Of a stretch of 41,127 nt of DNA, positions 1-41,127 are shown one piece after another (positions within the stretch are counted from its first letter, which is position 1; each line of letters begins with the position of its first letter). A program made the position numbers and the translations under genes. Below the pieces are notes generated by a model. It searched no databases. It had not been told where the DNA came from and saw only the letters and a list, made by a program, of their open reading frames with translations. The stretch comes from a virus, in the IMG/VR virus record IMGVR_UViG_3300030497_000005; one strand, given 5' to 3'.

Positions 1-127
1 TAGTGAATAAAATCTTGCATATTTCCAAGGAGAAAAGGGGGCCATTTTCAGTGGAGGATTTGATTAAAGAGTACAAATTAACATTAAAAAAAATTAGAAA
101 ACAGAAAGTGGAATTGAAAACAAGAAT
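1..127. repeat. terminal direct repeat, left copy (identical to 41001-41127)
   Basis: Read directly: tagtgaataaaatcttgcat...gaattgaaaacaagaat occurs at both ends. Confidence 0.98.
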
Positions 128-644
128 TCAGCATCTTAGTTCCTATTTACAGAGAAATGTAGATTCCGATGAAGCATTTAAGGAAATGGATGTCTTGAAA
201 GCAGAATGTAAAACCTATTCGGAAATCGAAGGGGACTTACAATTTGCCTTGGAGTGGATGATGAATGGAAAGATGCCAGGATTGATTCGAGGAATTGAAA
301 GAAGGTCTGTTTATCAAAATACCAAATTAATGGATCCTTTGGATATGCAGCGCTATTTTAGAAGCAATGAAAATCCTTATGAATGGGATAAAGAAGAAAA
401 GGAACATGTCATTACCTTAACAGATAAAGAAAAGATAGAAAAATTACTTTCTGTTTTAACAGATACAGAAAGAGAAGTCTTTTTGATGAAGAAAGGAAAT
501 GCTTTATCTCTAGATAAGATTGCTTATGAATGGGGAATTTCTAAACAAACTGTTTCCAAAACATTAAAAAGAGCAGAAGCAAAGATGGCTAAACATGTAG
601 AGAATCTAAAGGAGTTGGGACAATGGAATTTGTACAGCCTATAA
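3..644 (+). CDS. late-gene transcriptional activator, sigma-70 region-4-like (ArpU/RinA/Xpf type)
   Basis: C-terminal LTDTEREVFLMKKGNALSLDKIAYEWGISKQTVSKTLKRAEAKM looks like a sigma region 4 HTH. It sits directly upstream of the HNH/terminase block. The frame opens after a stop at 40967-40969 across the junction. Possible starts are GTG 3 or GTG 51 (SD AAGGGGG 34-40). Confidence 0.65.
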   Translation: MNKILHISKEKRGPFSVEDLIKEYKLTLKKIRKQKVELKTRIQHLSSYLQRNVDSDEAFKEMDVLKAECKTYSEIEGDLQFALEWMMNGKMPGLIRGIERRSVYQNTKLMDPLDMQRYFRSNENPYEWDKEEKEHVITLTDKEKIEKLLSVLTDTEREVFLMKKGNALSLDKIAYEWGISKQTVSKTLKRAEAKMAKHVENLKELGQWNLYSL

Positions 645-1165
645 GAGATCCAGAATTGTTGGAGGAATTAAAGAAGCATTTAAAACAGAAGAATGAAAGA
701 GATTATGTCATGTTTATGGTGGGGATTAATACGGGATTCCGTATTTCTGATATCTTGTTGCTGAAAGTAAAAGATGTTCGTGGAGACAGAATTAACATTA
801 GAGAAAAGAAGACAGGGAAACCAAAGAATGTGGTGATTCGTCCAGCATTAAAGAAAGTGCTCAGAAGCTATATTGCCAATAAGAAGCCACATGAGTATTT
901 ATTTAAAAGCAGGAAAGGAAGGAATAAGCATTTAAGAAGAGAGTCTGCTTATTGCATATTAAAGAAAGCAGCAATGGAAGTTGGTATTGATGAGTTTGGT
1001 TCACATTCCATGCGTAAAACCTTCGGTTTCATGTTCTACAATCAGACCAAGGATATAGTGGCTTTAAGAAAATTATTTAATCACAGAGATGATTCTACAA
1101 CATTAAGATATATCGGGATGGACCAAGATAGGCTAGATGCTTTGATGCTAAAAATAAACATTTAG
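623..1165 (+). CDS. small tyrosine recombinase, catalytic domain only (180 aa)
   Basis: All catalytic signature residues are visible: TGFRISD (Arg I), KTGK (Lys), HSMRKT (His-x-x-Arg), NHRD...LRYI (His, Tyr). No N-terminal core- or arm-binding domain. Confidence 0.8.
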   Translation: MEFVQPIRDPELLEELKKHLKQKNERDYVMFMVGINTGFRISDILLLKVKDVRGDRINIREKKTGKPKNVVIRPALKKVLRSYIANKKPHEYLFKSRKGRNKHLRRESAYCILKKAAMEVGIDEFGSHSMRKTFGFMFYNQTKDIVALRKLFNHRDDSTTLRYIGMDQDRLDALMLKINI

Positions 1166-24308: not shown

Positions 24309-24339
24309 AAAAGCCCTTCTCGTTACGAGAGGGGCTTTT
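24309..24339. terminator. bidirectional terminator between endolysin and minus-strand cassette
   Basis: AAAGCCCTTCTCG / CGAGAGGGGCTTT stem with a 3-nt loop, A run upstream and T run downstream. Confidence 0.75.
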
Positions 24340-24625
24340 ATTCCCAAGGTGCTTTCCAATCCTCGAAAGCTATGCGTTTTTCTTTATCCAAGACAGCCTG
24401 CAGGCCAGCGGTTATGTCATGACGCGTATTGTATTTCACGCTCTTCACTTCAATATCATAAGGATACTCCCTGCGCACACGGTCAAACCATTGATAAGTC
24501 AAGCGCACAGCTTCTAAATTTGGATTAACAGCAAACTTCTTCTCATTCACTTCAAAGCTTGCACGTCTCTTTCCAATCGATTCATTTGAAGTTACATATT
24601 CCAAGTCAATCAGTATTTCTTTCAT
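24338..24625 (-). CDS. hypothetical 95-aa protein (moron-like)
   Basis: SD AAAGGA followed 9 nt later by ATG. The start overlaps the stop of the upstream mini-ORF (ATGA). No recognisable motif. Confidence 0.6.
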   Translation of the reverse strand: MKEILIDLEYVTSNESIGKRRASFEVNEKKFAVNPNLEAVRLTYQWFDRVRREYPYDIEVKSVKYNTRHDITAGLQAVLDKEKRIAFEDWKAPWE

Positions 24626-24786: not shown

Positions 24787-24917
24787 GAAAGATGTCGCTC
24801 CTTTAGTTAGGTAAGTAATGTCTAATTTATTTCAGTATAACAGGACTCACGTTCGTTTTAAAGGATTTTTACAGGAACATTTGTTCTGTTTTTGTTTTGA
24901 GTAATTTAAACAAGGTA

Positions 24918-24942: not shown

Positions 24943-25584
24943 CTATTTCATCTTGAAGTAAATACCTGGTGTTTTATTTACTGGAGTTTTCTTCTGTTTG
25001 TATTTTTCAATGTTTCCTTTTAAATCATGGATGCTGTTAACCTGACTAATCTTAAACGGATATTCTTCACGATTAAACTGCATGTTAAGTTTTCCGATGA
25101 TTAATACATTAGGAAACTTTTCTATAAAACCTTTTTCATAAAAAGATTTATATTTATCAAGCTTATCAGACAGTTGTTTAGTGCTAAATAAGCTGTTTTG
25201 GCACTCTATAAACCATTTCCTTCCTAACCAATCTGCAAAGCCGTCAGAAATGAAATCTGCGCCTTCTAGCTTACGCTCAACCTCAAATGAAGTTTTCCTA
25301 TCGTAGCTCAACATATCTACATATGTTTGACCAATCATCAAATGGTGGTCAAGTTTTGCAGAATTTATTTTAATAGCAGAGGGATTTAGGTAGTATAAAT
25401 AATGTTGAAAAGGTCGGTCTGTATTTGCTTGTATATAGCCATCTTGTCGTAATCGTTTTAACACGCGGTTTGCTGTTTTCAGTGGATCTGCATTACTTGA
25501 GAAGTGAAGCGCAGCTATCATTTTAGAGTCCATTACTTTAAATTTTTCTAAGGTACTCAGTATCTCTAAATCTCTTTTTCTCAT
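24943..25584 (-). CDS. replication-relaxation family protein
   Basis: N-terminal winged-helix-like MRKRDLEILSTLEKFKVMDSKMIAALHF...ANRVLKRLRQDGYIQ. SD TAGGAGTG followed by ATG 25584 (track start 25629). Lies 13 nt after the FtsK stop. Confidence 0.7.
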   Translation of the reverse strand: MRKRDLEILSTLEKFKVMDSKMIAALHFSSNADPLKTANRVLKRLRQDGYIQANTDRPFQHYLYYLNPSAIKINSAKLDHHLMIGQTYVDMLSYDRKTSFEVERKLEGADFISDGFADWLGRKWFIECQNSLFSTKQLSDKLDKYKSFYEKGFIEKFPNVLIIGKLNMQFNREEYPFKISQVNSIHDLKGNIEKYKQKKTPVNKTPGIYFKMK

Positions 25585-25597
25585 GATGTACACACTC

Positions 25598-26761
25598 CTA
25601 TGCAAATAAATCATCATTAGGGTTTTCATTTAATTCTGGTAAAGGTTCATTTACATTCTTAGCAGGGCCTTTCATGATACAGTAAGGGTTTAATATTTTT
25701 TTAGCTTCCTTAAAGGTTAAATGAGGACTTTGAAGCTCCATCAATTCTCCAGCATTTAAAATTAATCGTCCCATTTGGTCGAGCTTAATCTTTTCGGCTC
25801 CTTTTGTACCAAGTAACATGGCATTTGTTTTGTCTACTGTTCGGAAGCTCATACGAATACTAAAATTACTTCTTGCTTTCGTATTCATCACATCTGCATC
25901 CATCCGTTGTGCAGAAGCAAGTAATAGTACACCTGTTGCACGTCCTTTGCTAGTTATCTTTATTATGTTTTGCATTATTTCTTTATGGTCCATGTATTCA
26001 ATAAACTCATCAACAGCAACTAAAATTATTTTCTGCTTATGCTCAGGTGGTAAATCCGTTACATGCGGTACTTCATAAAGATCCAAAAGTTCTTCTCTTC
26101 TGTACATCTCTTTAACCACTTTATTTAAAACCTTGTGCGCATCTCTGGCCGAATAAACTACCTGTTGCACATGCTCTACCTTTTTGAACAAACCGAACTC
26201 AGCCCTTTTTCCATCAATACAATAGATATCTAGTTCAGATGGCTTTTTATATTGGATGAGCGTAGACAGAATGACACGAATAGAGGAGCTTTTACCACTT
26301 CCACTTGCTCCTTGAATAATGACATGAGGAAAATCTAAATTCTCTAGTACAATGTACTGTCCGTTGTTTTTCTTACCAACAACAATTGGCATAATCATTT
26401 CATCTAAATAGGGGGCTATTTCCTTGTAATTATAGAGAAGGTTTGATTTTAGAGGATTATCATATATGGTAAGTGTAAATGTTTTGGTATCACCTTTCAG
26501 AGCAATTGCGTTACCAAATATTTGTTCAAACACATAGTACTTCTTCATAGTCATTTCCTTTGGATCTAAGCCATTCAGTAAAGAAAACACTATTTCTGTG
26601 CAATTCTCCTTATCTTTACGCTTTATAGAATGAATGGGAGGGTATGCATAAATTGATTTATCGCCAAGTTTAGATGTCATAAACAAACCCGATCGCCTGA
26701 AAAATTGTTTTAATTTATATCTGTATTTAGTTTTAAACAATTGCTGTTGAATGTAGTTCAT
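25598..26761 (-). CDS. FtsK/SpoIIIE-family DNA translocase / coupling-protein-like ATPase
   Basis: Walker A GASGSGKSS, Walker B KIILVAVDEF, soluble N-terminus; SD GAGGTG. Confidence 0.9.
   Translation of the reverse strand: MNYIQQQLFKTKYRYKLKQFFRRSGLFMTSKLGDKSIYAYPPIHSIKRKDKENCTEIVFSLLNGLDPKEMTMKKYYVFEQIFGNAIALKGDTKTFTLTIYDNPLKSNLLYNYKEIAPYLDEMIMPIVVGKKNNGQYIVLENLDFPHVIIQGASGSGKSSSIRVILSTLIQYKKPSELDIYCIDGKRAEFGLFKKVEHVQQVVYSARDAHKVLNKVVKEMYRREELLDLYEVPHVTDLPPEHKQKIILVAVDEFIEYMDHKEIMQNIIKITSKGRATGVLLLASAQRMDADVMNTKARSNFSIRMSFRTVDKTNAMLLGTKGAEKIKLDQMGRLILNAGELMELQSPHLTFKEAKKILNPYCIMKGPAKNVNEPLPELNENPNDDLFA
26134..26143. repeat. third copy of TGTGCGCATC
   Basis: Identical 10-mer to 24627-24636, located inside the FtsK-like gene. 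Confidence 0.9.
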
Positions 26762-28098: not shown

Positions 28099-28142
28099 TA
28101 CTTCAAAAGTAATAAAACACATTGAGAATGGAGTTGGTTTTA

Positions 28143-29294
28143 ATGTTTAGAATAGGAGCTATTGATAGTGGATTTGATGCATTAAAAGGCTATATCGGCG
28201 GAGTAAAAGAAGAGAATAAGGTTTATATTCCGAACGTAATTAAGGAGCTGAATAGAGACGAATCTTTAGGATCTGGAGAAGGAGCAGCAATTGATGAATT
28301 GCATGTTAGGGTAACGAGTGATGCTCTTACTACAAAGAACAATACCAGCTATGCAGTGGGGAATTTCGCTTCTCGCTTTTCAACAGCAGATCAAGGAGCT
28401 GCTACAGATAGAAAAGGGGATTCAGACCAAACAATTATTTTAATTCTTACAGCCCTTGCTTTAGATGCAGCTACATGCGGTCAATTCAATCAAGAATCAG
28501 ACTTGATAAACGCAAAATACTTATTAAGCACTGGCTTACCGATTGACGAAAGTAAGAAAAAAGGAGCTCGTAAAGCATTTGCCAGCAAGTTAAAAGATGG
28601 GATGCACCAAGTCCAATTTTTAGAGACTCCTGGTCTTAAAGGTAAAACAGTAAGAATTTCCTTCGAAGATGTATATGTAAATTCTGAAGGCCATGCAGCA
28701 ATGGTTAACTTAACAGTAAGCGATGATTTTAAAACGAGAAATGAAGATCTTTTACAAAAGAATGTGCTCCTTGATGATATGGGAGGAATAACAACTGATT
28801 TTGCAGTCATAAGAAAAGGAAGTATCGATAATGAAAACTCAGAGGGTATTCCATTAGGAATCGGTGAGACTTTAGATGAAATTATCCGTAAAGTACACAG
28901 TGAGCACCGTTACCGTTTTAAAACTAGACGTGACCTAATTAATAACATTACAAGGGATGAAAAAGCATATATTGTTCGTCCTCAAGTCGAGGAAGTAGAC
29001 ATAAAGAAAACGGTAAATGATATCCTTGAAGTATTCGCACAAGAACAATTCATTGAAATAAAAAGAATGTGGAGCAAAGTAAATGATCTGGACGTTATTA
29101 TTTGTGTAGGTGGAACAGCATACTTATTAAAAGAATTTATAGAGGAATTGAATAGCAACATTAACTACCCTATACAGTTCGCAGATAGTGCAGAAGAAAG
29201 CATTTGGAGTATTGCTAAAGCTTATTATAAACTGCTATTCCTTAAAGCTAAAAACGCTGGTTATACAGAAGAACAATTATTAGTTATAGGATGA
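28143..29294 (+). CDS. parM: actin-like segregation ATPase (ParM/Alp family)
   Basis: Actin-fold motifs: phosphate 1 GAIDSGFDALKG, phosphate 2 LLDDMGGITTDFAVI, adenosine ICVGGTAYLL. SD GGAG followed 9 nt later by ATG 28143. Confidence 0.85.
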   Translation: MFRIGAIDSGFDALKGYIGGVKEENKVYIPNVIKELNRDESLGSGEGAAIDELHVRVTSDALTTKNNTSYAVGNFASRFSTADQGAATDRKGDSDQTIILILTALALDAATCGQFNQESDLINAKYLLSTGLPIDESKKKGARKAFASKLKDGMHQVQFLETPGLKGKTVRISFEDVYVNSEGHAAMVNLTVSDDFKTRNEDLLQKNVLLDDMGGITTDFAVIRKGSIDNENSEGIPLGIGETLDEIIRKVHSEHRYRFKTRRDLINNITRDEKAYIVRPQVEEVDIKKTVNDILEVFAQEQFIEIKRMWSKVNDLDVIICVGGTAYLLKEFIEELNSNINYPIQFADSAEESIWSIAKAYYKLLFLKAKNAGYTEEQLLVIG

Positions 29295-29674
29295 TGATAA
29301 TGAAAGAACTCAAGGAATTAAAGCCTGGATCTAATGTTTCAATAAGAATACCAGTAAATACTTCAGAAGAAATCCTAGAATTCATTAATCAGCCTAGAAA
29401 TATAAACAGAAACAAATACTTATCAAATTTACTTTTTTCAAAGATCCAAGAGGAAATGGCAGATAAGGGGAATACCATTTCCCTTACTTTGCCTTTTTCT
29501 GTTTCACCAGAACAGCGTAACATCATTCAGGACCATTTGAAATCTTTATTCCTTGTGATGAATGGTGGCAGCACCAAAGAAAAAGAACCATCAGAACCAA
29601 ATAAAGAAAGCATAGACTGGTCAGAATTAGAAAAAGTTAATAAGCTTATTGAATTTGACGACGATGATGAATAG
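29291..29674 (+). CDS. putative centromere-binding adaptor (ParR/AlpR position)
   Basis: Overlaps the parM stop; 127 aa; acidic C-terminal tail EFDDDDE. The call rests on position only. Confidence 0.45.
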   Translation: MMIMKELKELKPGSNVSIRIPVNTSEEILEFINQPRNINRNKYLSNLLFSKIQEEMADKGNTISLTLPFSVSPEQRNIIQDHLKSLFLVMNGGSTKEKEPSEPNKESIDWSELEKVNKLIEFDDDDE

Positions 29675-30014: not shown

Positions 30015-31007
30015 TTAACTAAACATCATTCTAAATTGGTCAAATACGTTTCCTTCCTCAGGCTTGTCCAGCGTTCTAATTTTATAATCAAAGGCATTAC
30101 TAACCCATTTTTGAATAAGACCATTCATGTTATCAATATTTTTAACGGTTTTAAGCATTTTAGAAATAGCTAAAGAAAACTCATAGTCATTAATTGCAGA
30201 GGTATCATCATTAGAACATTTTGGTTCAATATAACCTTTGTTAACTTGGTAAAAGTAAGCATCTTCAATTAATTGAATTTGAACAGCTGATAAATTAATA
30301 ATATTATCCACCATCATAACCTTAATCTTGTTCTTTAAATCTTGAGGTATCTTTGAATTCCATAAAATATTATATTTATCTACTACACTATGATTATGGT
30401 TAAGATTATTTATATTATTATTATTATTTATGTTTTTATTTATATTACTTATTACTTGTGTTCCATTTTGGAACTTCCCGAAGTTTGATTCTGGAACTTC
30501 CGGGAAGTTCGTATTTGAAACTTCCGAAGAACTTTCAGTTTTGATGCTTGTCTTTTCACTTTTTAAGACAAAGTTCATCTTATGGATTTTTTGTTTCTGT
30601 TTACGTTCTTCAATGCGATTTTTAATTTTTTGCTTCATTTGTTCATCATCGTTTATCATCAGTTCAGCAACAGCATCCCAAAAAATATGTATATATCTAG
30701 TTGTCTTTCCAGTTACTAATCTTTTCGTATGCCTTTTTAGCAAACTATGATCTTCCATTTCTTTGAATATCTTAGCTTGCTTACCCTTTTTCAAAGTAGT
30801 CTCCATTTCACAGTCTTCTTCTGTCCAATAAAACATATCATCTTGCAGCTTATTTTGTTCAAACCATCTTTTATATTGGTTGATTGTTTCAGCGAGTAAA
30901 ACAGCGAAGTCAATACCAAATTTACGAGCAATCAATTTATTTACTGGAACAAAAGCTGAAGCTGACATCCAATTTATTGCTAACATTTTAGAATCTATAT
31001 TTGCCAT
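30015..31007 (-). CDS. plasmid-type replication initiator (RepA_N-like)
   Basis: The N-terminal region (FVPVNKLIARKFGIDFAVLLAETINQYKRWF...FYWTEEDCEMETTL...IFKEMEDHSLLKR) resembles the winged-helix RepA_N/DnaD-like initiator layout. The central region is a low-complexity poly-Asn linker carrying DNA repeats. SD GGAGG followed 8 nt later by ATG 31007. Confidence 0.65.
   Translation of the reverse strand: MANIDSKMLAINWMSASAFVPVNKLIARKFGIDFAVLLAETINQYKRWFEQNKLQDDMFYWTEEDCEMETTLKKGKQAKIFKEMEDHSLLKRHTKRLVTGKTTRYIHIFWDAVAELMINDDEQMKQKIKNRIEERKQKQKIHKMNFVLKSEKTSIKTESSSEVSNTNFPEVPESNFGKFQNGTQVISNINKNINNNNNINNLNHNHSVVDKYNILWNSKIPQDLKNKIKVMMVDNIINLSAVQIQLIEDAYFYQVNKGYIEPKCSNDDTSAINDYEFSLAISKMLKTVKNIDNMNGLIQKWVSNAFDYKIRTLDKPEEGNVFDQFRMMFS
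30470..30534. repeat. three iteron-like repeats inside rep gene (candidate origin)
   Basis: GGAACTTCCCGAAGTT (30470), GGAACTTCCGGGAAGTT (30493) and GAAACTTCCGAAGAACTT (30517) at a 23-24 bp period, each internally palindromic. They are flanked by the AT-rich tract 30395-30460. Confidence 0.65.
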
Positions 31008-31064
31008 AAAAAAAACCTCCACTAATTTTTGTGAAGGAAATTCGCCAAGTTTTAATAAAAACTC

Positions 31065-31099: not shown

Positions 31100-31228
31100 A
31101 ACTAAATTAAGTTAAATCATTTCCCCTTACTTTGGTAGGTGAGTGGCGAAATTCCTTGGAAGCTCTGATGTTTGCCGCATCGAGCTTCTTTTACTTTATA
31201 ATTCCTGTCCATTGAGACAGGTTTTTTT
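31100..31228 (+). ncRNA. candidate countertranscript antisense to the rep mRNA leader
   Basis: Bounded by the promoter above and by two plus-strand intrinsic terminators. The first is GAAGCTCTGATG / CATCGAGCTTC followed by TTTT (31159-31192). The second is CCTGTC / GACAGG followed by T7 (31204-31228). No ORF. It lies wholly within the rep leader. Confidence 0.5.
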
Positions 31229-31258
31229 ATGTATTTTGAATTACTTGTCTTATGTATT

Positions 31259-31287
31259 AGTATATGTATTTTTCGCGCATTTTGCAA
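31259..31287 (-). promoter_or_regulatory. rep promoter
   Basis: On the minus strand: -35 TTGCAA (31287-31282), 17 nt, -10 TATACT (31264-31259). This gives a leader of about 245 nt to ATG 31007. Confidence 0.55.
31270..31285. promoter_or_regulatory. CGCGC box A (TTTTCGCGCATTTTGC) inside rep promoter
   Basis: 15/16 identical to box B at 34045-34060. Confidence 0.45.
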
Positions 31288-31309
31288 GAAAAAATTAAAG
31301 AAGGATTTA

Positions 31310-31543
31310 TTATTTATACTTCATTAAATCCCACAACTCAATTGGTTCTTCTCCTTTTTCTGCAGCAACCTCATTTAAAACATGCAAAATATTTTCTAAA
31401 GTATCAATATGAACACGATCTACATTATTATTTTTAAGTGCATATACAGTCTTGGGAGCAACTCGCGCCAATGTAGCAACCTTATTAGGTGTAACATTAA
31501 GTTTTTTCAATACCTGATTTAATGTAAATTCGATTTTTTTCAT
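31310..31543 (-). CDS. small XRE-type HTH regulator (CopR-like position upstream of rep)
   Basis: LNQVLKKLNVTPNKVATLARVAPKTVYALKNN is an HTH motif. SD GGGGA followed 5 nt later by ATG 31543 (track start 31603). Confidence 0.7.
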   Translation of the reverse strand: MKKIEFTLNQVLKKLNVTPNKVATLARVAPKTVYALKNNNVDRVHIDTLENILHVLNEVAAEKGEEPIELWDLMKYK

Positions 31544-31651
31544 CATAATCCCCATAATGTGACATAATTTGACTAATACATAATTTTTATAACAATATAC
31601 CATATTTAACTAATAAATTATATAACTATCAACAATGTTATAAAATATAAG

Positions 31652-31680
31652 TTGCAAAGTTTGCCTTTAGGGGTTAAACT
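31652..31680 (+). promoter_or_regulatory. promoter of receptor gene
   Basis: -35 TTGCAA, 17 nt, -10 TAAACT. Confidence 0.4.
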
Positions 31681-31715
31681 TTTAATTACAAAAATATGGT
31701 TAGGGAGGGATTTTA

Positions 31716-32849
31716 GTGGGAAGTAATTATTTGGACAAGCTAAAAAACGATGCCAAAAAATTTGGTTTTACATATGAGAAACTTGGCAAGTATTTAGGAG
31801 TTAGCAAAGGACAAATATCCCACTATTTCAGTCTTAAAAACCATATATCATTTGATAAATTTGTTGAGCTATTAAAATTAATATATGATGACACAAATGT
31901 TATTTCTAATTACATAGCAGAGTATGCATTAAATATTGATGATTTGGGCGATGTAAGAGCTGCTACAGAATTTCTAGATAGTCATGGCAGAGAGGACCTA
32001 ATTAAACAAATAATAAAGAAGTATGCTGATGAACCATATCTGAAAGTATATAAGGTTATAGCGGAACGTAACGAGGGTATTTTAAGCGAAAAACAAGTGT
32101 ACTGGGAATTAGAAAAACTGAAATCAATAACTCCTGAAGAAAATAATGAAACCAATCTTTTAATTAACGTCAAATCTTTATCATGTTGCATTAATTTACA
32201 AGCTGTTGGCATGGTGCATATTTTGGCAGAAGATCTTTTGGAATTGATAAAATCAATTCCAAACCAGTATATCAAGGAATCCCTTGAATTAAAGATACTA
32301 GATACTGTTGCAAGGGCTCACCAAAAACAATCTGAATTGGAAATTGCTATTGATATTTGTAATGATGTTATAAAACGAAGTGAGAACTATCCTTTGGAAA
32401 AAATATATATGTTGAACTTATTGAGTGAAATACATGTTTTTAGTTCTTATGAAAAAAGTATTAATTATAATAAGAAAGCGCTGGATTTATACAATAAGTT
32501 AGGTTCAGGAACCAATTTAAGATTTAAAGATTTATTAGAATCCACTCATGATTTTATAAAAATATTCCATGAAGATTATGAGGATTTATTTCTGACAGAT
32601 CCAGCAGAAAAAGCTTACTATTTAGTATCTAACGGAAATCCAGAAGACCTTAAAAAGGGTATATCATTATTGGAACAAATGAAAAGTAAAAACGGAAAAC
32701 TTTCCCCTCAACAAGAATATTACTACGCACTTAGCCAAAATGATTTAACTCTTATGGAAGAATCATTATTAACTTTCGAAAAAGCAGGCGACATTTTTTA
32801 TTCTAATTTACCCAAAAACCATTTAATAGGAAAAAAGAATCATCTTTAA
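31716..32849 (+). CDS. aimR: AimR-like (RRNPP-type) peptide receptor / transcription regulator
   Basis: 377 aa with an N-terminal HTH (LGKYLGVSKGQISHYF) and an all-helical TPR-like remainder. Followed by a secreted propeptide gene. By eye it resembles phi3T/SPbeta AimR in size and layout. Confidence 0.65.
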   Translation: MGSNYLDKLKNDAKKFGFTYEKLGKYLGVSKGQISHYFSLKNHISFDKFVELLKLIYDDTNVISNYIAEYALNIDDLGDVRAATEFLDSHGREDLIKQIIKKYADEPYLKVYKVIAERNEGILSEKQVYWELEKLKSITPEENNETNLLINVKSLSCCINLQAVGMVHILAEDLLELIKSIPNQYIKESLELKILDTVARAHQKQSELEIAIDICNDVIKRSENYPLEKIYMLNLLSEIHVFSSYEKSINYNKKALDLYNKLGSGTNLRFKDLLESTHDFIKIFHEDYEDLFLTDPAEKAYYLVSNGNPEDLKKGISLLEQMKSKNGKLSPQQEYYYALSQNDLTLMEESLLTFEKAGDIFYSNLPKNHLIGKKNHL

Positions 32850-32909
32850 CAAATGTTAGAAAAAATACAAATTTTTTGACTTTATTGCTATCCGCGTTAA
32901 AATCACTTG

Positions 32910-32918
32910 TGATATAAT
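32910..32918 (+). promoter_or_regulatory. extended -10 element TGATATAAT upstream of propeptide gene
   Basis: Perfect TGnTATAAT; overlaps the ATG at 32917. Confidence 0.45.
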
Positions 32919-33123
32919 GAAAATACGCGCGAATAGTAATAAAGTTAGTGAGGTGCTTTTCCTGAAAAACAAAATTAAAAAAGTCATTATCGGTACATTG
33001 TTAGCTGCAACGTTAATCACAGGTTCTTTCGTATCATCGGTACAAGAAAAACAACAAACAGCTTCAGCTGATTATCATGAAAGCTTTGATAAAACAGCAG
33101 ATCCTGGTGGCGGAAGAACTTAA
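32917..33123 (+). CDS. aimP: secreted signalling propeptide (AimP-like), C-terminus ...ADPGGGRT
   Basis: Lys-rich n-region, hydrophobic core VIIGTLLAATLITGSFV and polar tail. The probable real start is CTG 32962, 6 nt after SD GTGAGGTG (53 aa). Confidence 0.6.
   Translation: MKIRANSNKVSEVLFLKNKIKKVIIGTLLAATLITGSFVSSVQEKQQTASADYHESFDKTADPGGGRT
32926..32940. promoter_or_regulatory. CGCGCG box D (CGCGCGAATAGTAAT)
   Basis: Located at the predicted +1 of the propeptide promoter. 13/15 identical to box C. Confidence 0.45.
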
Positions 33124-33149
33124 TAAAACAAATATATCTTAATATGTTG

Positions 33150-33185
33150 AAAGACATCATACATTTGGTATGGTGTCTTTGTTAA
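33150..33185 (+). terminator. terminator after propeptide gene
   Basis: AAAGACATCATAC / GTATGGTGTCTTT 13-bp stem with a 5-nt loop. Confidence 0.65.
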
Positions 33186-33196
33186 TTTAAAGAGAA

Positions 33197-33232
33197 GTTT
33201 AGTCATTTTAAGAAAATGAAAAAACACTAAAC
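33197..33232. promoter_or_regulatory. candidate receptor operator GTTTAGT-N22-ACTAAAC
   Basis: 7-bp inverted repeat with a 22-bp spacer, located between the propeptide terminator and the 52-aa ORF. Confidence 0.4.
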
Positions 33233-33250
33233 GAATGAGGGGATTCAATA

Positions 33251-33409
33251 ATGCATACATTACCAGATTTATTAGTTGAACTTTGTAAACAAAACAAAAT
33301 TAATCCAACAGCATACATAAATCAAGGAGCTATAGATGTTAATGAGATAATAACATCTTTAGTTGATAATGGAATAGCATCAGAAGAGACTTTAAAAGAC
33401 CTCATATAA
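33251..33409 (+). CDS. 52-aa ORF in AimX position (not in ORF track)
   Basis: MHTLPDLLVELCKQNKINPTAYINQGAIDVNEIITSLVDNGIASEETLKDLI. SD GAGGGG lies 8 nt upstream. Confidence 0.5.
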   Translation: MHTLPDLLVELCKQNKINPTAYINQGAIDVNEIITSLVDNGIASEETLKDLI

Positions 33410-33411
33410 AT

Positions 33412-33453
33412 AAAAAAAAGAACATTTTCCATAGGGAGGTATGTTCTTTTTTT
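33412..33453. terminator. bidirectional terminator (AimX-position ORF / CI-like gene)
   Basis: AAAAAAAAGAACAT / ATGTTCTTTTTTT stem. Confidence 0.8.
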
Positions 33454-33455
33454 AT

Positions 33456-33806
33456 TTATTTGTTTAAAAGTGCTGAAATAACTTTTTTTAAATTATCTGC
33501 TTGTTCTTCAGTAATTGGTTTGCCATCATATGTTAGTGTACTGGAATTAAGAATATTTTTAAGTTCATTTATATCCATTGTAGTTTCTTCGTCAGTATTA
33601 CCAGTTAGGTAATCAACTGTGGTTTCTAATATTTCTGCTAATCTAACCAGAGCATTTCCATTTACTTTACGTCTACCAGTTTCCCATCCAGTTAATGTAG
33701 ATCTACTTATATCAAGAGTATTTAATATATATGGAATTTTGATTTTATGCTTCTTGCGTAAGTATCTAATTCTGTCTCCAGTTATTGATTTGTAGTTTTC
33801 CTCCAC
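33456..33806 (-). CDS. CI-like XRE repressor (no S24 peptidase domain)
   Basis: ITGDRIRYLRKKHKIKIPYILNTLDISRSTLTGWETGRR is an HTH motif. 116 aa. Divergent from the Cro-like gene. Confidence 0.8.
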   Translation of the reverse strand: MEENYKSITGDRIRYLRKKHKIKIPYILNTLDISRSTLTGWETGRRKVNGNALVRLAEILETTVDYLTGNTDEETTMDINELKNILNSSTLTYDGKPITEEQADNLKKVISALLNK

Positions 33807-33895
33807 TTCACATTCACTCCTAAAACATTATTAGACATTTTATGTTATGTTGTAGTACTTTATCTAGCATCAATATGGATTAATACTAAATATAG

Positions 33896-33913
33896 ACTGT
33901 GTATATACACAGT
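33896..33913. promoter_or_regulatory. 18-bp perfect palindrome ACTGTGTATATACACAGT (operator candidate)
   Basis: Read directly. A third half-site-like copy, TAGACTCTGTAT, follows at 33914-33925. Confidence 0.55.
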
Positions 33914-34040
33914 TAGACTCTGTATGGACATTTTATATTCTTATTATATTATCTTCAAAATGCGGTCAATATGCAATAAAAATATGTTTTTTGAATAAAA
34001 TTCATTTTTTACAAAAAACATATTTTTTATTCAAAACCGC

Positions 34041-34069
34041 TTGATTTTCGCGCGTTTTGCGTGTATATT
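34041..34069 (+). promoter_or_regulatory. early (cro-side) promoter
   Basis: -35 TTGATT, 17 nt, -10 TATATT. The spacer contains box B. Confidence 0.5.
34045..34060. promoter_or_regulatory. CGCGCG box B (TTTTCGCGCGTTTTGC)
   Basis: Located in the spacer of the early promoter. Confidence 0.45.
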
Positions 34070-34110
34070 TAAATGTATAATCATTCAATGTACATAAAGG
34101 AGAACGATAA

Positions 34111-34305
34111 ATGGGTTCTGCCAAGAAGAGAATAATTTTAATAAATGAACGTGAAAAAAGAAAATTATCTCAAACTGAAGTAGCTAAATACATTGGTATT
34201 AATGTAATGACATACTCTAATATTGAAAGAGGTGTTAGAAATCCAGGATTAAAAACAGCCATTAAGATTGCAGACTTTTTTAAAATTGATATTAAAAAGC
34301 TGTAA
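34111..34305 (+). CDS. Cro-like XRE HTH regulator (64 aa)
   Basis: REKRKLSQTEVAKYIGINVMTYSNIERGVRNP is an HTH motif. First gene of the rightward early operon. Confidence 0.8.
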   Translation: MGSAKKRIILINEREKRKLSQTEVAKYIGINVMTYSNIERGVRNPGLKTAIKIADFFKIDIKKL

Positions 34306-34332
34306 TTTTTTTTAAATAATATTAGCGCGTTT

Positions 34333-34347
34333 CGCGCGAATATAAAT
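34333..34347. promoter_or_regulatory. CGCGCG box C (CGCGCGAATATAAAT), preceded by GCGCG-TTT-CGCGC hairpin
   Basis: Read directly, in the gap between the cro-like gene and the next ORF. Confidence 0.45.
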
Positions 34348-34388
34348 TATTGCGATTTGTCAGTATTTGTAGATGGGAGGAATTCAGA

Positions 34389-34709
34389 ATGATGAACACT
34401 AAATTAAGAATTTCTACAGACCAAAGTCAAATAGTTGTACACGCGATTAAAGAGTTAATTCCTTCTTTAAATAAAGGAGAAGTTAGTCAGTTTAAGATGG
34501 CAGCAGTTAAATTCAGGGATGAAGAAATTTATGTTGATGGTATTTCAATGAGATGTGCAGAAAGAGCTTTATTAGAAAAGGCATCTAAGTCAGAGTACAA
34601 GCTTACTAGACTCATTCTAAAAAACCTTGCTGGATCCATTGAAGAACAAAGAGAACACTTCCAAGAACAATTTAAAGAACAATCAATGAAACAAATATTT
34701 GCTGGTTAA
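34389..34709 (+). CDS. hypothetical early protein
   Basis: SD GGGAGG followed 8 nt later by ATG 34389 (track start 34350). Confidence 0.6.
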   Translation: MMNTKLRISTDQSQIVVHAIKELIPSLNKGEVSQFKMAAVKFRDEEIYVDGISMRCAERALLEKASKSEYKLTRLILKNLAGSIEEQREHFQEQFKEQSMKQIFAG

Positions 34710-35726: not shown

Positions 35727-36461
35727 ATGCTTTACACATACGATCCATACACCAATATATTGTTAGAAACCAGTTATGAAGAATTAAAAAAAATAACAGG
35801 TTTGAATCCTTCAAGATTAAAATCCTTCATTGCAAAAAGTAAAAAAGTCCCGAAATTTAATTTTTATATTACTGAAAAAAACATTTCTATAGAACAAAAG
35901 AAAATTTGGTATGCAAGGGAAAATTATGAAAATGAATGCTGGAAACAAATATCTAATACTGATTATTTGATTTCAAGTTATGGTCGTGTAAAAAGAAAGT
36001 TCAAAAGGTTTGGAGAACTAATTTTACCACTATTCGATAAAAGAGACGGCCAGATGTTTGTGAACCTCAACATTAACGGTAAGGGACAACGGTTCTACAT
36101 TTCCAGATTAGTCGCAGAGTACTTTCTTGATAAACCAAGTGATGAACAAAAGAAACTCGTTTATCACAAGAATCGGATTAAAACAGATAATTACTTTCTA
36201 AATCTAACTTATTTGTCCAGAAGTGAATTGAGTCGTCTTACGGTTGCTAAGTCAAGAAGCAAAGCAGTTGTAGAAATAGATGAAACTACTCTTGAAGTGA
36301 TTGAAGAGTATAGATCCGCAAAAGAAGCAGCTGAAAAAACATTTATGAGCCATACCATAATTTTGAAATGTTGCCAAGGGAAAGTCAAATACGCTTGTGG
36401 TAAAAAGTTCATGTTGGAATCAGATTACTTAAAAATAATAGGAAAGAAACAGGTATCTTAA
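35727..36461 (+). CDS. free-standing HNH homing endonuclease (NUMOD4 + HNH_3 + NUMOD1/IENR1-like)
   Basis: CWKQISNTDYLISSYGRVKRKF (NUMOD4-like), VYHKNRIKTDNYFLNLTYL (H-N-N) and VVEIDETTLEVIEEYRSAKEAAEKTFMSHTIILKCCQGK (C-terminal DNA-binding repeat). Confidence 0.8.
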   Translation: MLYTYDPYTNILLETSYEELKKITGLNPSRLKSFIAKSKKVPKFNFYITEKNISIEQKKIWYARENYENECWKQISNTDYLISSYGRVKRKFKRFGELILPLFDKRDGQMFVNLNINGKGQRFYISRLVAEYFLDKPSDEQKKLVYHKNRIKTDNYFLNLTYLSRSELSRLTVAKSRSKAVVEIDETTLEVIEEYRSAKEAAEKTFMSHTIILKCCQGKVKYACGKKFMLESDYLKIIGKKQVS

Positions 36462-41000: not shown

Positions 41001-41127
41001 TAGTGAATAAAATCTTGCATATTTCCAAGGAGAAAAGGGGGCCATTTTCAGTGGAGGATTTGATTAAAGAGTACAAATTAACATTAAAAAAAATTAGAAA
41101 ACAGAAAGTGGAATTGAAAACAAGAAT
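41001..41127. repeat. terminal direct repeat, right copy (identical to 1-127)
   Basis: Read directly. Most simply an assembly overlap of a circular or circularly permuted molecule. Confidence 0.98.

Follow-up and report, generated by a model that had tools for sequence, protein, structure and literature searches.

Arbitrium, a peptide-based system for the choice between lysis and lysogeny, was reportedly described by Erez et al. in 2017 in the phages phi3T and SPbeta. The AimR operator of these phages consists of two 6-bp inverted boxes, 25 bp apart (PMC6458997). Zamora-Caballero et al. subsequently found that aimP and aimX form one transcription unit read from the aimP promoter with a terminator between the two genes, that AimR bound just past this terminator is an antiterminator, that altering the distance from terminator to binding site abolishes antitermination and that no aimX promoter lies downstream of the AimR site (PMC10769878). 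Kabel et al. (2025) assigned ~75% of 9,300 arbitrium systems to a five-gene 'extended' module consisting of aimR, aimP, an aimX of 29-80 amino acids (aa), a convergent helix-turn-helix (HTH) repressor gene aimC of 80-140 aa without an autocleavage domain and a cro-like gene, aimL (bioRxiv 10.1101/2025.11.23.689978). In that module the binding of AimX to AimC prevents AimC from oligomerising and frees the aimL promoter from repression, an antirepression that was shown in phi106, phiW23, Wbeta, BMBtp14 and a Waukesha92-like phage-plasmid (bioRxiv 10.1101/2025.11.23.689978). Arbitrium on extrachromosomal phage-plasmids with partition genes has been published for B83 (PMC6669507) and RBClin15 (PMC11526630), with further cases in surveys of RRNPPA receptors (PMC9765709, PMC12700828) and in the Waukesha92-like phage-plasmid just mentioned. 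The locus considered here occupies positions 31310-34305 of the IMG/VR virus record IMGVR_UViG_3300030497_000005, whose full 41,127 nucleotides (nt) are referred to as the window, and is very probably an extended arbitrium lysis-lysogeny module made up of aimR, aimP, terminator, operator, aimX, convergent aimC and aimL.

An original prediction, made from the letters of the sequence alone, had already read part of this locus as arbitrium. That identification is borne out by the AimR family models, profile and fold of the receptor, by the position and DPG tail of the AimP product, by the operator and by a conserved 52-aa open reading frame (ORF); what does not survive is the unusual character claimed for it, episomal phages with arbitrium and DPG peptides having been published already. 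The window has the published extended layout, with a convergent aimC of 116 aa, a divergent aimL of 64 aa and an aimX of 52 aa. Membership of the AimR and AimC families, the anatomy of the module and its conservation in relatives are established by the present analysis. The components are as follows.

31310-31546, minus strand: U, an HTH gene of ~78 aa directly upstream of aimR and divergent from it (Pfam HTH_26, E = 4e-6)
31716-32849, plus strand: aimR, 377 aa, HTH and degenerate tetratricopeptide repeat (TPR) domain, GTG start after GGGAGGG
32953-33123, plus strand: aimP, propeptide of ~53-56 aa from GTG 32953 or CTG 32962, Lys-rich n-region, C-terminus ADPGGGRT
33150-33180, plus strand: terminator hairpin after aimP, 13-bp stem (RNA dG -16.6 kcal/mol, z = -4.1)
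33197-33232, no strand assigned: candidate AimR operator GTTTAG-N24-CTAAAC (= TTTAGT-N22-ACTAAA), 16 nt after the hairpin
33251-33409, plus strand: aimX, 52 aa, Shine-Dalgarno (SD) sequence GAGGGG at 33238-33243, 7 nt upstream
~33406-33460, no strand assigned: bidirectional terminator between aimX and aimC, inverted repeats with A-run and T-run (RNA dG -20.4, z = -5.4)
33456-33806, minus strand: aimC, 116-aa repressor convergent with aimX, HTH and small C-terminal oligomerisation domain, no autocleavage domain
33896-33930, no strand assigned: candidate AimC operators in the aimC-aimL intergenic region, a palindrome with halves ACTGTGTAT and ATACACAGT (ACTGTGTATATACACAGT) at 33896-33913 and a half-repeat 21 nt downstream
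34111-34305, plus strand: aimL, 64-aa cro-like HTH protein (Pfam HTH_3, E = 7e-17), divergent from aimC

The receptor had been described as a 377-aa ORF with an N-terminal HTH and a helical remainder, and it has both: its N-terminus matches Pfam HTH_3 (E = 2.6e-5) and an AlphaFold2 model built with 19 homologues (pLDDT 91.5, pTM 0.90) is all-helical by DSSP. It scores 224.4 bits (cutoff 70) against the NCBIfam equivalog NF038310, lysogeny_AimR, over model positions 1-365 of 365, and matches Pfam PF22871, AimR (E = 1.3e-32, 113.7 bits, cutoff 26.7) and PHROG 1728 (E = 1.6e-66); there was no Pfam or NCBIfam match to other RRNPP(A) families. The comparison with AimR by profile and structure that the original prediction had called for gave the same answer. 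A search of the PDB with the single sequence returned spurious Fis1/TPR matches only and a profile was needed; a five-sequence profile gave full-length matches to phi3T AimR (5zvw, E = 3.9e-24; 5zvv) and also to the AimR of the ATCC13952 phage (9f36). When the model was compared with the PDB by Foldseek, the top 16 structures were AimR crystal structures (phi3T, SPbeta, Katmira33 and ATCC13952; TM 0.55-0.77, mostly 0.66-0.77), followed at a much lower level (TM 0.3-0.46) by generic TPR proteins, PlcR and a Rap. On family models and predicted fold, the 377-aa protein is a full-length AimR.

Relatives of the receptor are few and mostly distant. A HMMER search of 1.84 billion cluster representatives found 174 at E <= 1e-3, the nearest full-length one being 48% identical, followed by a group at 33-37%, and the annotated AimRs on plasmids and phages of the Bacillus cereus group and Anoxybacillus are 22-31% identical. 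By these figures the lineage is divergent yet well inside the AimR family. Three metagenomic loci are referred to repeatedly below: L067 (JGI 3300011140, 39 kb contig), with an AimR 48% identical to that of the window, L001 (JGI 3300081785, 32 kb contig), at 43%, and L066 (ENA ERZ27241723), at 89% in AimR and 96% in DNA. Megablast found no close DNA relatives of 31300-34400 among deposited phages and plasmids, nor did relatives of the receptor come to light in 185,579 species-representative genomes, scanned twice in a limited way by peptide pattern, once with a single protein and once with a profile.

The convergent gene was seen by the original prediction as a neighbouring CI-like repressor. 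A repressor it is, but as the AimC of the module rather than as a mere neighbour: residues 11-115 match residues 34-138 of PDB 9iaq_A (E = 8.4e-21), the structure obtained from crystals of AimC_BMBtp14 (bioRxiv 10.1101/2025.11.23.689978), and because the match extends across both the HTH and the C-terminal domain the gene is taken as an AimC homologue. Its significant domain matches are to HTH families only (HTH_3, HTH_31, HTH_19), and it is 58% identical to its counterparts in L001 and L067 and 42% to that of BMBtp14. The aimL product is 53-56% identical to those of L001 and L067 and 47% to that of the gene in the aimL position of BMBtp14, and aimL is presumed to be the first gene of the early lytic operon. 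AimC has been shown by electrophoretic mobility shift assay to bind the aimC-aimL intergenic region in phi106 and BMBtp14 (bioRxiv 10.1101/2025.11.23.689978). The palindrome found there in the window has a similar counterpart in L001 (ACAGTGTATA) and a further GTGTATAT copy lies near the start of aimL, at 34049-34068; it is plausibly an AimC operator. Downstream of aimL a gene resembling HNH/NUMOD4 homing endonucleases (35727-36461, plus strand) is inserted in the presumed early operon.

The 52-aa ORF with SD GAGGGG was correctly reported, and its placing in the aimX position has gained from finding the protein conserved at the same position in relatives. It is 42% identical over 36 aa to that of L067 (E = 4e-11) and 39% to that of L001, and the family could be aligned with two further loci, L002 and L005, of which L005 is more distant, as is the version on an Anoxybacillus plasmid. 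A single-sequence AlphaFold2 model (pLDDT 84) has a helix, a short beta-hairpin and two helices. AimX proteins are known to be highly divergent (bioRxiv 10.1101/2025.11.23.689978), and since the similarity of this one to a validated AimX is marginal, the role of antirepressor is argued from AimC homology, synteny and size. On that comparison the ORF is best read as an antirepressor of AimC rather than as an AimX of the phi3T type. The idea that AimX is a SinI/SinR-like mimic of the AimC C-terminal domain was considered separately and is unsupported rather than refuted, there being neither sequence similarity between AimX and AimC nor a Foldseek match.

If the system were instead of the phi3T/SPbeta type, the downstream element would be a MazE-like antitoxin peptide or a regulatory or antisense RNA and not an antirepressor of the adjacent repressor. 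The order aimP, terminator, operator and aimX is common to both types, the 52-aa ORF is close in size to phi3T AimX at 51 aa (PMC10769878), and an earlier hypothesis had aimX transcripts working as antisense against the convergent repressor (outlined in bioRxiv 10.1101/2025.11.23.689978). Against this, the ORF is kept as a protein in relatives, had no tblastn match in 50,697 phage records even at E <= 10, and is flanked by aimC and aimL rather than by genes of the SPbeta-type context; moreover an aimX start-codon mutant lost regulation in extended systems (bioRxiv 10.1101/2025.11.23.689978). The bidirectional terminator shared with the convergent repressor gene, which had also been predicted and has equivalent AAAGAACA...TGTTCTTT hairpins in L001, L002 and L067, is strong, so antisense read-through is unlikely as the main mechanism. 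A downstream element of the phi3T/SPbeta type is therefore very improbable, and the antirepressor reading of aimX is retained in what follows.

The predicted terminator with a 13-bp stem was found between aimP and aimX, and 0 of 200 shuffled sequences fold as well. A hairpin follows aimP in every locus examined, and in an alignment of eight sequences 98.9% of cells are paired, with three pairs showing compensatory changes between two lineages that amount essentially to one evolutionary split. It is proposed here as the site of AimR-controlled termination. The 7-bp inverted repeat GTTTAGT/ACTAAAC with its 22-bp spacer is likewise present as predicted. The pattern GTTTAG-N{18,30}-CTAAAC has a single match in the 41 kb, where 0.06 would be expected, and 6 of 100 shuffles contained at least one match.

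L001 and L067 have the same boxes, N24 spacing and 16-nt offset as the window, and in these two and L066 the operator boxes and spacing, the sequence core of the hairpin and the element ATACGCGCGAATAG are all identical. BMBtp14 has TTTAGT-N21-ACTAAA, and 21 consecutive bases of its right side (GAAAATGAAAAAACACTAAAC) are identical to those of the window despite an AimR identity of ~25%. Hairpin and TTTAG are separated by 17 nt in all four of the window, L001, L067 and BMBtp14, among which the AimRs are 25-48% identical; L001, L067 and BMBtp14 were located by protein similarity, independently of the operator motif. BMBtp14-like loci all have the same boxes, with spacers that vary in sequence and differ by 1 bp in length; these loci are not independent evidence for the boxes because they were retrieved with the operator pattern, a scan of IMG/VR with which gave 40 matches, 35 of them by chance and five beside AimR on BMBtp14-sized contigs. 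The AimRs sharing the TTTAG box are exactly those sharing the recognition-helix motif [ST]K[GA]x[IV]S, which other AimRs do not have. The suggestion that the long-spacer inverted repeat is the AimR operator is thus favoured by the retention of its boxes and position in relatives, and its architecture fits that reported for SPbeta and phi3T (PMC6458997). From the end of the candidate operator to the aimX start codon there are 18 nt, with the SD in between, which leaves no room for a separate aimX promoter. On the precedent of phi3T and SPbeta (PMC10769878), AimR is most likely an antiterminator working at the hairpin and not a classical activator.

Between aimR and the hairpin lies the short ORF, beginning 67 nt downstream of aimR and ending ADPGGGRT-stop, that had been picked out as the propeptide gene. 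The ORF is there with its tail, but the ATG at 32917 from which it had been read (32917-33123, 68 aa) is probably not the start, because it lacks an SD and follows immediately on the extended -10 box TGATATAAT, because the aligned position reads ATA in the 96% DNA-identical L066, and because the NCBIfam model NF033802, AimP_fam, aligns with residues 21-54 only of the ATG-initiated version. Translation most likely begins at GTG 32953 or CTG 32962, after GAGGTG, which gives ~53-56 aa, close to the 44-61 aa of relatives. The change leaves the signal-peptide core and the C-terminus unaffected. Read from the sequence, the n-region is KNKIKK, the h-region comprises 17 residues (VIIGTLLAATLITGSFV) and a possible cleavage site lies between VSS and VQE. 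In all related loci examined aimR is followed by a small ORF whose product has a hydrophobic N-terminus and ends in an xPG motif plus 3-5 residues, and a DPG C-terminus is common to 20+ related loci. Representative C-termini are these.

Window: TADPGGGRT
L067: IKDPGGSGE
L001: IKDPGGTGG
IEBH: EADPGGTGG
B. mycoides p52: MVDPGTGSG
Anoxybacillus pBstUI51: LRDPGDIG
L005: VKDPGGGGGW
BMBtp14: EVGPGGGAG
Waukesha92: SEPGGGGW

Published tails are similar, the AimP of B83 ending ADPGGSVG (PMC6669507) and that of RBClin15 VDPGGGGW (PMC11526630), and a 'widespread DPG motif' has been noted across AimR-type peptides (PMC12700828). The signal was rightly said to be unlike SAIRGA and GMPRGA, but the same three papers deprive it of novelty. 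By position, tail and signal-peptide features the product can be regarded as a DPG-type AimP propeptide, of a kind recorded before in phages and phage-plasmids of the Bacillus cereus group. All peptides of the lineage of the window have DPGG followed by three variable residues, GRT in the window and L066, SGE in L067 and TGG in L001, which fits separate signalling 'dialects' and suggests these residues as determinants of specificity; the ADPGGGRT tail of L066 is identical to that of the window while its pro-region differs. The mature signal is plausibly PGGGRT or a close variant, and DPGGGRT is as good a candidate as the PGGGRT of the last-six rule, because the peptide DPPVGM of phi106, a clade-1 phage, also begins with DP (bioRxiv 10.1101/2025.11.23.689978).

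Taken together these components suggest the following course of events, in which peptide secretion, processing and identity, antitermination, binding of AimX to AimC and the plasmid state are inferred from homologues studied by others. The aimP gene would be transcribed from its own promoter and translated to a propeptide of ~55 aa, which would be exported, cleaved by signal peptidase and shortened extracellularly to a small peptide containing the C-terminus, DPGGGRT or PGGGRT. With little peptide present, apo-AimR dimers would occupy GTTTAG-N24-CTAAAC, 16 nt past the aimP terminator, and cause read-through into aimX by antitermination. The 52-aa AimX would then bind the C-terminal oligomerisation domain of AimC, so that AimC would leave the aimC-aimL operators and the early lytic operon beginning with aimL would be expressed. 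As imported peptide accumulates AimR would be locked in a form unable to span both boxes, transcription would end at the hairpin and AimX would be lost; AimC would then repress aimL and the genome would become a plasmid prophage.

The phi3T model requires a promoter belonging to aimP itself (PMC10769878), and candidates for this were found in the gap between aimR and aimP together with an unexpected repeat.

32876-32903, plus strand: candidate aimP promoter TTGACT-16-TAAAAT (consensus scan 10/12)
32879-32896 and 32928-32945, plus strand: 18-nt inverted repeat bracketing the aimP promoter, 21 nt counting G·U pairs
32908-32916, plus strand: candidate extended -10 box of aimP, TGATATAAT (prediction)

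The motif TGnTAnWWT is present in this gap in all ten loci examined. The inverted repeat occurs once in the 41-kb window and as plus-strand RNA has a dG of -25.5 kcal/mol (z = -4.1). Its right arm lies within ATACGCGCGAATAG, an element that shows no variation among the window, L066, L001 and L067 although the three full-length AimRs of the loci sharing it are only 43-48% identical. The repeat is kept in L066, L001 and L067, and an analogous one is found in L005 and BMBtp14, that of BMBtp14 having another sequence; it was absent from the other BMBtp14-like loci examined. It matched no Rfam family, and a metagenome scan with the lineage element CGCGAATAGTAATAA..GAGGTG produced a single chance match, L065, without an AimR.

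On the other side of aimR, gene U has homologues in the same position in L001 (49% identical), L067 (44%), BMBtp14 (37%) and Anoxybacillus pBstUI51 (36%), and its start is placed at the ATG pair at ~31543-31546 because the first 20 residues of the 97-aa ORF fall outside the alignments. To judge by these homologues U is conserved with the module, though it is not among the five published genes of extended arbitrium. It is conceivable, though rather doubtful, that signal production is itself regulated in this lineage through the repeat at the aimP promoter. The repeat could serve U, AimC or AimL as a pair of operators for gating transcription of aimP; alternatively it could be a hairpin, formed only in mRNA reading through from aimR, that controls translation of aimP. 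If true, this would be a feedback input to arbitrium, which was not found described in the literature consulted, and U would be a sixth component of the module in phage-plasmids. As a separate observation, L003, L004 and L024 (B. mycoides p52, IEBH and Waukesha92) have, divergent from aimR, the gene for a longer repressor-like HTH protein of 105-114 aa and not of the ~78-aa U type, annotated 'prophage repressor' in IEBH, so that in these three the arbitrium genes are flanked on both sides by genes of repressor-like type.

The element that carries the module is a circular assembly of ~41.0 kb with 34% GC, circularity following from the 127-bp exact direct repeat at the ends of the window (1-127 and 41001-41127). 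It encodes small and large terminase, portal, ClpP-type protease, major capsid protein, tail proteins and endolysin, as in tailed phages, and genes of plasmid type, namely an Alp7A/ParM actin-like partition ATPase, a Replic_Relax protein and an FtsK/SpoIIIE ATPase. Two of its features bear on the mode of maintenance.

28122-29674, plus strand: Alp7A/ParM partition ATPase and a small gene downstream (Pfam Alp7A_like_C and ALP_N; PHROG partition protein, E = 4e-46)
623-1165, plus strand: tyrosine recombinase of 180 aa with the catalytic domain only, upstream of the terminase genes

A full tailed-phage gene set thus stands with plasmid maintenance genes on one circular replicon, the combination that defines a phage-plasmid. 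The partition genes, of which the Alp7A-like gene is also carried by L001, are consistent with extrachromosomal maintenance, and the element is probably a tailed phage kept as a plasmid in an uncultured Bacillales host. The host is assigned to the Bacillales, at a level above the genus, because the large terminase (TerL) is closest to those of Geobacillus phage PK5.2 and B. thuringiensis phage BMBtp13 (72-74% identical) and Psychrobacillus phage Spoks (66%). The 180-aa recombinase might resolve multimers in the manner of Xer proteins, a role suggested for B83, or else represent a minimal integrase; short Xer-type recombinases in the plasmid prophage B83 have been linked to partition (PMC11526630), so the gene is compatible with an episomal lifestyle.

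The original prediction placed the cassette beside a rep gene rather than an integrase. The label 'rep' for 30015-31022 (minus strand) is weak, its sole support being a PHROG 'replication initiation O-like' match at E = 1e-4; and the genome is not free of recombinases, given the 180-aa tyrosine recombinase. The rep-like ORF has a 68%-identical homologue in L067, but what L001, L002 and BMBtp14 carry in its place is not related to it, so that this slot in the genome appears exchangeable.

Several observations on the element stand apart from the module. The gene for a sigma-70 region-4-like protein (3-644, plus strand) precedes the tyrosine recombinase just upstream of the terminase genes, and the Replic_Relax (PF13814) gene overlaps that of the FtsK/SpoIIIE-family ATPase (24943-26761, minus strand), a pairing more typical of plasmids and conjugative elements. 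The only perfect Cheo-box core in the window, GAACATTTGTTC, is at 24874-24887, upstream of a 95-aa ORF (24338-24625, minus strand), and is possibly an SOS input far from the arbitrium module, the count of LexA-like sites in the window being not above chance. Models of defence systems did not match the small ORFs, and a search for Rfam-type RNA families in 31200-34400 found nothing near gathering scores.

The plasmid-type genes invite the thought that AimR and AimP mainly control plasmid functions, that is replication, copy number or partition by way of U, the rep-like gene and Alp7A, much as Rap-Phr acts on conjugation of pLS20. The cassette does adjoin a divergent HTH gene, the rep-like ORF and partition genes, and conjugative plasmids, too, carry homologues of AimR (of 403 plasmid matches, 171 were typed as conjugative). 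The single copy of the operator, however, lies between aimP and aimX and away from the rep and par genes, the rep-like gene is not kept with the module across relatives, and the repressor/cro pair downstream is homologous to experimentally characterised regulators of lysis and lysogeny, which together leave control of plasmid functions very improbable. That the cassette is decayed, an intact 'eavesdropper' receptor with a non-functional peptide gene or aimX, is the least credible explanation of all, for while the aimP start is ambiguous (GTG or CTG, the ATG not being conserved), the AimP model scores under its cutoff and the peptide ends in RT where most relatives have a tail ending in G, the aimP ORF, its SD GAGGTG and the exact C-terminus are kept in L066, all parts of the module are intact with SDs and terminators, and endings other than G occur in intact relatives (GSGE in L067; GGGGW in L005, RBClin15 and Waukesha92).

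An extended arbitrium module on a phage-plasmid thus remains the preferred interpretation, and a number of results that weigh against it have to be set beside those above. The window AimX and that of BMBtp14 are 36% identical over 25 aa in a permissive pairwise search; a hidden Markov model (HMM) of the BMBtp14 type ranks the window AimX first of 805 ORFs, yet with E = 0.11, and hhalign gives E = 0.006 with a probability of 6%. The AimX model has no Foldseek match to the AimC oligomerisation domain (9IAQ) or to any PDB entry. There is no LexA (Cheo) box near aimX, so the SOS input of phi106-type systems is missing or works differently. Antitermination has been demonstrated for SPbeta-type AimRs only, which are ~18% identical to that of the window, and of the eight sequences aligned for the operator, four had been collected by means of its own pattern, leaving four that are independent. 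The only NCBIfam match of the aimP ORF, NF033802 AimP_fam, is at 18.8 bits (E = 0.0014), below its cutoff of 35; this was not taken as the failure of a defining feature because a short and fast-evolving propeptide can score poorly. Finally, the tyrosine recombinase may mean that integration of the element is conceivable, and the identification of its replication initiator is weak.

What the locus adds is modest. Extended arbitrium now reaches a lineage of uncultured Bacillales phage-plasmids known from metagenomes only, and the catalogue of peptides gains the dialects DPGG-GRT, -SGE and -TGG. The 16-17-nt offset between terminator and operator and the TTTAG/CTAAA boxes are kept relative to BMBtp14 at ~25% AimR identity, and this conserved geometry is comparative support for the antiterminator mechanism of phi3T/SPbeta in extended-arbitrium phage-plasmids. 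Novelty is confined to the metagenome-only lineage, the peptide tails and the conservation of the geometry, and current understanding of arbitrium is unchanged; the module is a well-supported annotation of a divergent member of a described system and not a discovery.

Set against known systems, the locus resembles the other RRNPP(A) receptors, PlcR-PapR, Rap-Phr and NprR-NprX, in that a cytoplasmic TPR-type receptor stands beside the gene of a secreted propeptide that carries the signal in its C-terminal part; the fold of the window receptor is matched much more poorly by PlcR (TMq 0.41-0.42) and the pLS20 Rap (0.40) than by AimR (0.55-0.77). With phi3T/SPbeta it shares the AimR fold, 6-bp inverted boxes with a spacer of ~25 bp, and the order promoter, aimP, terminator, operator and aimX with no separate aimX promoter, the AimX proteins being near-equal in size. 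It differs from them in that the AimRs are ~18% identical, the AimX sequences are unrelated and the peptide is of DPG type and not xxxRGA; the partners there are the sro/yop operon and MazEF, in the window AimC and AimL (no specific search for sro genes was made), and the SPbeta type is a large integrated prophage whereas the window element is plasmid-like. The closest characterised system is that of BMBtp14 and relatives such as B83 (PMC6669507). Its virion modules differ from those of the window, whose TerL is closest to PK5.2, BMBtp13 and Spoks, its AimR is ~25% identical, its peptide is EVGPGGGAG and not ADPGGGRT, the operator spacer of the window is 1 bp longer and AimX similarity is marginal. 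BMBtp14 is a circular replicon (~50 kb) maintained as a plasmid with ParM-type partition, as is probable for the window element, its AimX is also of 52 aa, and the order and orientations of its genes are the same as in the window, the divergent HTH gene upstream included.

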